NCBI RefSeq assembly: GCF_054482595.1
Contig: NZ_CM137008.1
Direction: 5' to 3' (one strand)
Length of the DNA stretch: 64,000 bases
Below are positions 56,144-58,262 of the stretch, piece by piece. Both the position numbers and the translations under genes were made by a program. How positions within the stretch are numbered: position 1 is the first letter of the stretch; each line of letters begins with the position of its first letter. The notes beneath the pieces are model-generated. The model did not search any database, was not told the origin of the DNA, and was given only the letters and a program-made list of their open reading frames with translations.

Positions 56144-56450
56144 TATTCCCCCTGCTTTTCCAGCGCATACTTATACAACGCATTCTTCTTCACTCCGTGG
56201 ATTTCTGCCGCCAACGCCGCCGCTTGCTTCAACGGCAGCTCAGCCTACAACAGCGCCAGCGTACGCAGCGCATTGGCGGGCAGTTCGTCATCCTGGGCTT
56301 TATGGCCTTCAATAATCAGCACCATCTCGCCTTTGCGAGGGTTTTTATCTTCTTTGATCCACGCCAGCAGTTCGCCGACCGACGTGCCGTGGATGGTTCC
56401 CAGGCGGGTGTTCATCACATAACGGTATAGGGCATCATTCAGCGGAGCCA
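56144..56450 (-). pseudogene. rsmI: rsmI (yraL) 3-prime fragment with in-frame TAG, 5-prime truncated by IS66
   Basis: Minus strand encodes ...[87 protein letters not shown]. Confidence 0.65.
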
Positions 56451-56495
56451 TTAACTGGCAGCACGCGTCAACCCAGTTGGAGAGTAATGCACGGC

Positions 56496-57191
56496 TCAGC
56501 TCGACGCCCTAACGGGCAAAGATTTCACTCTGACGGTACAGTGGCAGATGTTCGCAGTATTTCCCGTTAACACACGGGCAAGCAAGCCGGGACCTGCGAT
56601 ACCACGCTCTATCGGACGGGACGGCGCCGGTGCTTCAACAATACAGTCACATTTTGTACAGGCTTTTTTTACCCGAACAGTGCGGATCACTTTCAGGGCA
56701 CTGCTCACCAGTTCCAGCTGCTCAGCACTGACTTCCCCCAGATAATCCAGCTCACTGCCACACTCCTGGCAACAACTTTCTTCAGGTTCCAGGCGGTGTA
56801 TTTCACGGGGAAGATGTGCCGGTAACGGACGACGATGACGTGACTGTCGCAACTGGCGGGGAACCTGCGGGTCATCCTCTCGCCCACTGTAACGATCGCT
56901 GTCCTGTTCTCGTTGTTTCAGTTGGGACTCAGCCTGTTCAACCTCACGCTGCAGTTTTTCAGAACGGGTACCGAACAGCATCCGGCGCAGTTTTTCTATC
57001 TGAGCCCGAAGATGTTCTATTTCCCGTTCCTCCTCTTCGATCTTTTCTTCGGCGCGGGCCAGCGCAGAGCGCAGGAAGGCCTCCGTCTCTTCAACCAGAC
57101 TCAGTTGCTGGTCTTTCTGACGGAGGGCTTCAGCCTGCTCAGAGAGCAACCTTTCCAGTTCTGCAATGCGAATGAGGTATTTCTGACTCAT
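56496..57191 (-). pseudogene. IS66 transposase TnpC, N-terminal fragment
   Basis: Leucine-zipper-like N-terminus and CCQECG...CTKCDC zinc-finger motif, then frame degenerates. Confidence 0.7.
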
Positions 57192-57221
57192 GACCGTTTT
57201 TATAATGCGGTCAGGAGTTTT

Positions 57222-57572
57222 TTACAACATTGTCAGTGAGTTAAGGCGGGATGTTTTTGGCTGACGCCAGTCCAGCTTATCGAGGAGCATTGCCAGTTGC
57301 GAGCGGGTAATGGATACCTTGCCGTCACGTACCGCAGGCCAGATAAACTGGCCTTCCTCCAGGTGTTTGGTGAACTGGCACAGACCATCAGAATCGGCCC
57401 AGAGTATTTTAACAGTGTCACACCGTCGGCCACGAAAGATAAACAGGTGACCTGAGAAGGGGTTCTCATCCAGCACATGTTGTACCTGTTCTCCCAGACC
57501 GTTGAAGGATTTACGCATATCGGTAACGCCGGCAACGAGCCAGATGCGGGTACCTGATGGGCGTGAGATCAT
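57222..57572 (-). CDS. IS66 Orf2 (TnpB)
   Basis: 116 aa (MISRPSGTRIWLVAGVTDMRKSFNGLGEQVQHVL...). Confidence 0.8.
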   Translation of the reverse strand: MISRPSGTRIWLVAGVTDMRKSFNGLGEQVQHVLDENPFSGHLFIFRGRRCDTVKILWADSDGLCQFTKHLEEGQFIWPAVRDGKVSITRSQLAMLLDKLDWRQPKTSRLNSLTML

Positions 57573-58006
57573 CTTCCCCTCCCGGTCAGTTCACGGATCA
57601 ACACAGTGAGCAGCTCTGGTGAAGGATTTTCCAGTGTCATTTTACCGTAATGGAATTCCACATGGCAGGAAGCCGCACAAGCAACTGATAATGCCTCCGG
57701 AGCAGGAGCATCTGTAGCACAGAGCGGGGTGTCGGTAAGTTCCACTGGAACCAGAGTCGGAGAGGCCGGAAAAGATTGTGGTACTGTAGGGCCTACAATA
57801 GTTGGAGGTATTCTACGAGAAATACGTATTTCTCTTTGCCAGAGGCGTAGCCATTTAAAAATCAGGTTGTTATCAACGCCATGTTCCCGGGCCAGTTGTG
57901 CAACATTGGCATTTGGTTTCGAAGCCAGTTCAACCATATGAAGCTTAAATTCATTAGAAAATATCCGGCGGGTCCCAGTGCGCCAGTCTGTAGATTTATC
58001 CATCAA
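57569..58006 (-). CDS. IS66 Orf1 (TnpA)
   Basis: HTH-containing N-terminus (FSNEFKLHMVELASKPNANVAQLAREHGVDNNLIFKWL); overlaps orf2 start. Confidence 0.75.
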   Translation of the reverse strand: MMDKSTDWRTGTRRIFSNEFKLHMVELASKPNANVAQLAREHGVDNNLIFKWLRLWQREIRISRRIPPTIVGPTVPQSFPASPTLVPVELTDTPLCATDAPAPEALSVACAASCHVEFHYGKMTLENPSPELLTVLIRELTGRGR

Positions 58007-58262
58007 TAGAACTCCGTCTAATTTAGAAGGAGCTCTAATTTAGTCTGCAAGGATCAGGTGTTACAGACGGCACTGGCTTTACGTTTACAAACAGTACGTG
58101 ATGAGTATGAGGCTTTTTTATCTGTATATAATCCCTCATTCTGTAAATTGGGATAGGGCAATTTCACAATCATCCTCCTCCCATATCACCAGTATATACT
58201 GAGCCGTGTTTATCTATTTGGTTAAAATTCGCTACAATCCCATTTTCTCTTTTGGGAATATA

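Follow-up and report, generated by a model that had tools for sequence, protein, structure and literature searches.

We detected the 3' end of the 16S rRNA methyltransferase gene rsmI, joined to a truncated IS66 element, in the window (the whole 64,000-nt stretch of contig NZ_CM137008.1 analysed here). This rsmI piece is very probably a relic without function, situated at the right edge of a foreign chromosomal block within an Escherichia coli genomic island. It is already known as an annotated feature: RefSeq/PGAP gives an incomplete '16S rRNA methyltransferase' pseudogene (labelled 'internal stop; incomplete; missing N-terminus') adjoining an IS66 transposase pseudogene, and the pseudogene pairs of E. 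coli 83972, B1, N12, Santai and others represent the same feature, with breakpoint and internal stop unchanged. Compared with the RefSeq/PGAP copies, the window lineage has a longer IS66 remnant (1.69 kb versus 90-125 nt) and a few extra point changes. In the literature, we found nothing specific on a prior description of this rsmI/yraL fragment or on the origin of the block.

A C-terminal piece of rsmI with an internal stop codon

The rsmI pseudogene fragment (56143-56403, minus strand) comprises the last 84 codons of the gene, fewer than the roughly 100 counted in the initial annotation, and ends with the TAA stop at 56143-56145. On the minus strand, 56144-56598 form one continuous frame, in which the rsmI portion runs from TIHG to the end. 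The segment from TIHG onward matches positions 204-287 of 287 in the NCBIfam profile PRK14994 (RsmI equivalog, E = 1.8e-42). At its 5' margin, the fragment keeps a further ~7 nt from the codons before these, apparently with 1 nt deleted; in a three-way alignment with native rsmI and intact tnpC, the window shows this deletion in the run TGGGAA(A)CC, on the rsmI side of the junction.

As a full-length RsmI (about 287 aa), the sequence falls below the cut-offs of both NCBIfam profiles, with 145.6 bits against 502 for PRK14994 and 58.7 bits against 167.9 for TIGR00096. It spans the whole RsmI_C HTH domain (PF23016; 65.4 bits against a cut-off of 27, with the TAG described below read as Gln), and this is its sole Pfam match. 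The N-terminal methyltransferase (catalytic) domain is missing, and beyond 56403 the sequence is IS66 tnpC instead of the N-terminal part of rsmI. Since it is without the catalytic domain, the fragment should be unable to yield a methyltransferase, and a C-terminal piece of 84 codons would not be expected to methylate 16S C1402. In relation to RsmI (YraL), the E. coli 16S rRNA cytidine-1402 2'-O-methyltransferase, homology extends over residues 204-287 and takes in PF23016. The fragment differs in the absence of the N-terminal ~70% (profile positions 1-203), in its premature TAG, in its position off the yraK-lpoA locus, and in 12 replacements among 82 otherwise near-invariant residues.

The frame is interrupted by an in-frame TAG at 56245-56247 (minus strand), inside the C-terminal HTH domain. 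Alignment to the native E. coli gene places this TAG opposite a CAG (Gln) codon, and Gln occupies the equivalent site in 9/9 intact RsmI proteins compared, which bears out the reading in the initial annotation that TAG replaces a Gln codon. A 61-mer with the TAG at its centre occurs in 517 complete E. coli genomes, and the TAG is common to the window, B1, N12 and STEC639, all four of the diverged variants of the island. As every variant has it, the Gln-to-TAG change is probably old.

An IS66 remnant and its junction with rsmI

Adjoining the rsmI piece are the genes tnpA, tnpB and tnpC of an IS66-family element, matched in this order on the minus strand by the profiles NF047595, NF033819 and NF033517. 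The gene tnpA (57569-58006; E = 1.1e-18) is intact and encodes 145 aa from a TTG, with the PGAP start at 58003; tnpB (57222-57572; E = 8.9e-34, above the cut-off) is likewise intact in the profile search and in PGAP, with 116 aa. Only the first ~263 of 530 codons of tnpC are present (56404-57191; E = 3.8e-45), and its score of 154.6 bits is below the cut-off of 180. The truncated gene is damaged further by a -1 frameshift, in which an A4 run has become A3 at about 56560-56563 (SCEC020001 and N12 keep TTTT), and by a lineage-specific TAG at 56509-56511 (CAG in SCEC020001 and N12).

One of the two terminal inverted repeats is kept. The left repeat (58067-58089, minus strand), which reads inward as TGTAAACGTAAAGCCAGTGCCGT, pairs at 17/24 positions with TGTAAGCGTCAACGGAGCACCGT, which forms the other end of the intact L002 element, and its position 58089 is the outer end of the remnant. 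The right end was lost through the junction at 56404. Because tnpC is cut and the right end is missing, the remnant would be immobile by itself. With IS66-family elements it shares the order tnpA, tnpB, tnpC, the overlap of tnpA and tnpB, and a terminal repeat starting GTAAAC/GTAAGC, and its nearest annotated relatives are an IS66-family element (~96%) and ISEc23 (~93.5%); unlike these elements, it has no right end, and its tnpC breaks off at codon ~263 of 530 and bears further mutations.

In SCEC020001, an intact IS66 (tnpC of 530 aa) occupies the same right-hand insertion site. The remnant corresponds to positions 1-1750 of that element at 95.4% identity, ending at window position 56404. The flank, the left inverted repeat and the 5' end of tnpA are 100% identical between the two, so the window and SCEC020001 appear to share one IS66 insertion site; the SCEC020001 element is no simple ancestor of the remnant, since the two are only ~95-96% identical inside the element.

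The junction joins the middle of rsmI to the middle of tnpC in the same orientation at 56403/56404. This position was obtained from the three-way alignment, from the PGAP pseudogene boundary on an identical locus, and from the BLAST hits to IS66 alone, every one of which begins exactly at 56404. The initial annotation had described an rsmI 3' fragment joined to a truncated IS66 tnpC, and the PRK14994 and IS66 profile matches, far beyond chance, uphold this; its breakpoint at about 56460 has to be moved, as 56404-56460 is tnpC sequence. Microhomology at the junction is limited to 1 nt, the C at 56404, which can be assigned to either parent. Because the junction sits within tnpC, away from an IS terminus, we infer an illegitimate (non-transposase) deletion or joining event.

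Using a 151-nt query spanning the junction (at least 80% covered), we found the junction in 517 of 5,426 complete E. coli genomes (~9.5%). The identical junction and TAG are present in all of these, including copies that have diverged by 3-7%, and the two together therefore appear to trace back to one old event.

A second IS66 tnpC piece, a C-terminal part in the same orientation, lies at about 46984-47570. We considered it as the missing half of tnpC and rejected it: its identity to the element is 65%, compared with 95% for the right remnant, and its match begins at element position ~1988 rather than 1751. Had it been the matching half, the block would have been inserted into an IS.

Decay of the fragment and possible residual function

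The fragment agrees with every intact gene at 66-70 of 82 aligned codons (amino acid identity), compared with 76-81 of 82 among intact RsmI C-termini across genera (79-81 for E. coli against Enterobacter). Counted at sites where nine intact genes do not vary, its unique changes number 15, compared with 1-7 in each intact gene. Codon positions 1-2 hold 12 of these 15 changes, and 10 of the 15 are GC-to-AT transitions. An excess of such transitions fits the general mutational bias of bacteria. By codon position, the differences of the rsmI fragment number 12-17/1-4/26-33. The substitution pattern points to relaxed constraint and to pseudogene decay. For the intact neighbouring gene on the plus strand, labelled 'enterotoxin' by PGAP, the corresponding differences are 34/27/205, which shows purifying selection on that gene.

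It is unlikely that the fragment has been kept for a partial function, be it as a terminator hairpin, as a chimeric peptide (the 68-aa ORF at 56248-56451) or as an RsmI_C HTH mini-protein. The rsmI 3' end is kept in all 517 copies, the IS66 side having been cut back repeatedly, and the fragment covers the whole RsmI_C domain. Yet that domain is interrupted by the TAG, the 68-aa ORF matches no family, the substitutions follow the relaxed pattern described above, and neutral linkage to a selected neighbour predicts co-retention equally well.

The best of these candidate functions is a GC-rich hairpin, AGCAGGGG-CTTATTC-CCCCTGCT followed by TTT (56134-56159, plus strand), which overlaps the rsmI stop codon and the last codons. 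It is predicted to be stable, with a fold of -33.6 kcal/mol for 56070-56180 on the plus strand (z = -2.5), and together with its U-run over the rsmI stop it may be a shared terminator of the convergent 'enterotoxin'/rsmI pair. A scan for consensus terminators left the hairpin unflagged because its T-run is short, and a terminator would use only about 25 nt, leaving the other ~235 nt of the fragment unexplained. Decay of a non-functional relic, with at most a terminator in its last nucleotides, is the reading that we prefer.

A probably captured, Enterobacter-like chromosomal block

The fragment appears to be the right edge of a piece of Enterobacter-type chromosome of about 7.7 kb within the genomic island (48691-56403, delimited by synteny and blastn), whose left end lies within garD and whose right end lies within rsmI. 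Based on PGAP annotation of the 99.99%-identical Santai locus, the block contains a garD' pseudogene (48660-49827), agaR (49890-50714), kbaZ'/kbaY' remnants of the aga genes (50963-51301), malX (51415-52986) and a malY/patB-like gene (52998-54173). These are followed by the intact gene labelled 'enterotoxin' or 'alpha-galactosidase' by PGAP (54187-56076, plus strand), which encodes 629 aa, or 637 aa if counted from an upstream ATG at 54163, and in which we found no Pfam domain. The order is thus garD'-agaR-kbaZ'/kbaY' remnants-malX-malY-'enterotoxin/alpha-galactosidase', with 'rsmI convergent at the end. We found no tRNA genes in the window that could mark a tRNA attachment site.

Using the 637-aa protein as a query against one representative genome per species, we detected orthologues with 89-92% amino acid identity in Enterobacter, Lelliottia and Kosakonia, and remoter ones in Raoultella, Kluyvera, Klebsiella, Yokenella, Buttiauxella and others. 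In the orthologue genomes, a full-length rsmI (286 aa) lies convergent to the 'enterotoxin' gene, its 3' end 60-80 nt downstream, and is followed by lpoA; this was seen in Enterobacter, Yokenella, Kosakonia, Lelliottia, Raoultella and other genera, so that rsmI is the convergent neighbour of the 'enterotoxin' gene in the donor-type arrangement. Upstream of the orthologue, we found malX-malY in Enterobacter cloacae M-7, Enterobacter hormaechei, Enterobacter quasihormaechei, Enterobacter soli and Yokenella, and garD-agaR in E. cloacae DSM 26481, Kosakonia, Lelliottia and Raoultella. At the nucleotide level (blastn), window positions 51044-56404 form a single 5.37-kb alignment at 86% identity with E. 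cloacae M-7 and E. hormaechei that ends at the junction, and the garD-agaR regions of E. cloacae DSM 26481 and Kosakonia run collinear with 48691-51032 at 77% identity.

No close donor was found among the sampled species (one representative genome each), the best block identity being 86%. The rsmI piece itself is at about equal distance from E. coli and Enterobacter (80-84% identity). We use the label 'Enterobacter-like' because the gene order agrees and because malX, malY and the 'enterotoxin' gene are 89-96% identical in amino acid sequence.

The native E. coli region has a matching outer order (garD...agaR...kbaY...rsmI), as would be expected if the block were an old intragenomic duplicate of the garD-aga-rsmI region rather than foreign DNA. 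We consider this very unlikely. The full native order is garD-prlF-yhaV-agaR-kbaZ-agaVWEF-nagA-agaS-kbaY-agaBCDI-yraHIJK-rsmI(-)-lpoA, in which the neighbours of rsmI are yraHIJK and not malX-malY-'enterotoxin'; the latter genes are native in Enterobacter and its relatives, and representatives of Escherichia species gave no match outside the island copies. In addition, the 16% divergence of the fragment from native rsmI is far above divergence within the species. A foreign, Enterobacter-like origin of the block is therefore retained.

Native rsmI and 16S rRNA methylation

The rsmI fragment is ~84% identical to native E. coli rsmI at the nucleotide level (range 83-85%), whereas E. coli genomes compared among themselves reach 95-100% identity. 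A 260-nt fragment query matched in 5,424 of the 5,426 complete E. coli genomes; in about 515 records the match reached at least 95% and represents island copies, and these genomes show two places. A native-type rsmI, with at least 80% of the gene covered, was found in 5,423/5,426 genomes, and because of this at least 514 of the 517 fragment carriers must have one.

In strain Santai, whose 2.4-kb locus is 100% identical to that of the window and which matches the window at 99.99% over 27730-64000, native rsmI stands intact between yraK and lpoA, is 861 nt long and encodes a complete protein of 286 aa. Our statements on native rsmI refer to Santai and to the population of complete genomes rather than to the window's own strain.

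The left 9 kb of the window abut gsp/yghD, and Santai abuts cadC there, which indicates that Santai is a different strain. The best match to the window's gsp/yghD boundary in the genome collection is 99.0%.

Locally, a 3' piece of rsmI right beside a truncated IS66 looks like the outcome of an IS66 insertion or deletion that broke the cell's own rsmI, in which case the strain may lack 16S C1402 2'-O-methylation. This is extremely unlikely, as the locus differs from the canonical yraK-rsmI-lpoA arrangement and from E. coli rsmI in sequence, carriers show both the fragment and the native gene, a full-length native-type rsmI is present in nearly all genomes, and Santai combines the identical locus with an intact RsmI. 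The effect on 16S C1402 methylation that the initial annotation had considered possible is unsupported, since native rsmI sits elsewhere, is intact in Santai and is near-universal. From this genomic distribution, 16S C1402 2'-O-methylation would come from the separate native rsmI, and the fragment would be irrelevant to it.

Spread and divergence across E. coli islands

Copies with the same junction and the same TAG were found at different degrees of divergence. The B1 copy is 99.3% identical to the window over 8.1 kb, the N12 and 83972 copies are 94-98% identical, and the STEC639 copy is 92.7% identical. The copy in 83972 lies in a different island, beside an integrase near dgcT/pgaA. In B1, N12, 83972 and STEC639, only 90-125 nt of the IS66 remnant are left, and the window lineage thus keeps the most complete IS66 side among the compared strains. 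The window's rsmI' copy has three extra amino acid changes (E to K, D to N and Q to K), and the STEC639 copy has another CAG-to-TAG change within tnpC'.

That the TAG or the junction might be a sequencing or assembly artefact, for which nothing speaks except the general possibility with a single read-through sequence, can be given practically no credence, since both recur in 517 independently assembled complete genomes, in copies diverged by 1-7% and in different islands, and PGAP flags the internal stop in each copy inspected. The initial annotation had raised a sequencing error at the TAG, and the independently assembled, diverged copies that share it rule this out.

We looked for a plasmid vehicle of the module and for carriers outside E. 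coli. Only three 'plasmid' records have the module; all are E. coli, and two are of megabase size. An ExPEC 'malX PAI marker' exists in the literature; with up to three mismatches allowed, the RPAi primer sequences used for its PCR do not match the window, and we claim no link to this marker.

The junction-bearing copies differ by up to ~7%, above the typical divergence of the E. coli core. Tentatively, and with rather less than even confidence, the block may be the fossil of a core-chromosome transfer from an unsampled Enterobacter-like lineage, sealed by one IS66-linked illegitimate junction, and the divergence of the copies would then mean that the fused module had a period outside E. coli, or a very long circulation, before it entered E. 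coli islands more than once. If this is true, the junction would be a clean phylogenetic marker for the history of the island module.

Proposed origin and implications

The scenario that we propose starts from the chromosomal order of Enterobacter and related genera, garD-agaR-(aga genes)-malX-malY-'enterotoxin-like gene', with rsmI-lpoA convergent. An Enterobacter-like stretch of about 7.7 kb, from inside garD to inside rsmI, would have joined a mobile island. Judging from the anatomy of the locus, one illegitimate event would have fused rsmI codon ~203 to codon ~263 of the adjacent IS66-family tnpC, with loss of the 5' 70% of rsmI, of the 3' half of tnpC and of the right end of the element. 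The fused module would then have spread among E. coli islands at various chromosomal sites and decayed since, the Gln-to-TAG change coming early and the window lineage later gaining three amino acid changes in rsmI' and the frameshift and second TAG in tnpC'. We infer the order of IS66 insertion, deletion and island capture in this scenario. Any residual role of the rsmI piece would at most be that of its last ~25 nt as a hairpin terminating the intact convergent upstream gene.

The locus resembles other gene remnants found where modules meet in mosaic E. coli genomic and pathogenicity islands, which likewise consist of a truncated foreign housekeeping fragment with IS debris, present in many strains and at several sites. 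It differs from them in that it allows an unusually clean reconstruction of the source arrangement, by collinearity with the Enterobacter-type garD...rsmI region.

For the biology of E. coli, the rsmI fragment would have no bearing on ribosome modification, as native rsmI is separate and essentially universal in the species. For annotation and for screening based on sequence alone, the locus is a caution that a housekeeping-gene fragment beside an island IS does not amount to loss of function. Our results trace the origin of the module to an Enterobacter-type chromosomal neighbourhood, garD...rsmI, and the rsmI'/tnpC' junction would be a handy single-origin marker for following the movement of the malX-malY-'enterotoxin-like' module.

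Island boundary, chromosomal site and cargo

The window starts within the gsp type II secretion cluster (1-8877), which ends with yghD/gspM, and the island starts at ~8878 with the DUF4942, DUF957, DUF5983 and cbtA-cbeA genes. In the E. coli strain Santai, cadC adjoins the same island in place of the gsp cluster, so the same 55-kb island content occupies different chromosomal sites among strains. Neither a tRNA gene nor an intact integrase was found in the 64-kb window. Among the island's genes are acnB and the citrate-lyase operon citCDEFXG, which presumably come in addition to the copies of the core genome; their coordinates (38892-46746) are valid because positions 27730-64000 are collinear with Santai.

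IS66 remnants around the modules

A module of amidohydrolase, dcuC and LysR genes (58349-61996) lies between two IS66-family remnants (56404-58089 and 62104-63753). In both remnants tnpA and the left end point inward and tnpC is truncated on the outer side, and the whole is a composite-transposon-like arrangement with both outer ends gone. To the left of the captured Enterobacter-like block we detected a C-terminal fragment of another IS66-family tnpC (46984-47570, minus strand) together with an end repeat (46813-46849). This fragment has the same orientation as the remnant at 56404-58089 and is only 65% identical to it, so the debris on either side of the captured block comes from two unrelated IS66 members. 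An intact IS66 occupies the insertion site of the window's remnant in E. coli SCEC020001 (positions 8145-10666 of that locus, L002). The flank, the left inverted repeat and the 5' end of tnpA are 100% identical between the two over 324 nt, and the interior is only ~95-96% identical, a pattern of sequence identity which suggests that part of the element was replaced via recombination with another IS66 copy.

Internal deletions and gene content of the captured block

What is left of the aga operon in the captured block are short pieces of kbaZ and kbaY (50963-51301), with a deletion joint at ~51032/51044. The ST73-type variant (strains N12 and 83972) has kept other aga remnants, namely pieces of kbaZ, agaS and kbaY, and has lost malX save for 81 nt. 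The captured block therefore underwent independent internal deletions.

The gene at 54187-56076 (plus strand) encodes a 629-aa protein that PGAP annotates as "enterotoxin" or "alpha-galactosidase" depending on the genome, and no Pfam domain was found in it. In Enterobacter, as in many other Enterobacteriaceae, this gene is conserved on the chromosome as a neighbour of malX-malY and rsmI, and distant relatives (35-47% amino acid identity) are present in MAGs of Verrucomicrobia, Planctomycetes and Gemmatimonadetes. The toxin naming of the product looks doubtful.

Two metagenome-assembled contigs labelled as Collinsella sp. and Lachnospiraceae (JAIJJM010000184.1 and SFGN01000089.1) carry DNA that is 98-99% identical to this island of E. 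coli; the "enterotoxin" gene is in both, and the rsmI fragment is in the second as well. Both are probably mis-binned E. coli contigs.

Substitution pattern of the pseudogenes

All three independent nonsense mutations, at 56245-56247 and 56509-56511 in the window and in the truncated tnpC of E. coli STEC639, are CAG to TAG (C to T) changes. This fits the bias of the substitutions unique to the rsmI fragment (56146-56397, minus strand), 10 out of 15 of which are GC to AT. At these otherwise invariant sites, 11 unique substitutions fall on codon position 1 and one on position 2, a skew that exceeds the expectation of simple neutral decay. The skew may stem from a G to A bias together with G-rich first positions, or from weak constraint at the protein level for a period before rsmI was truncated.
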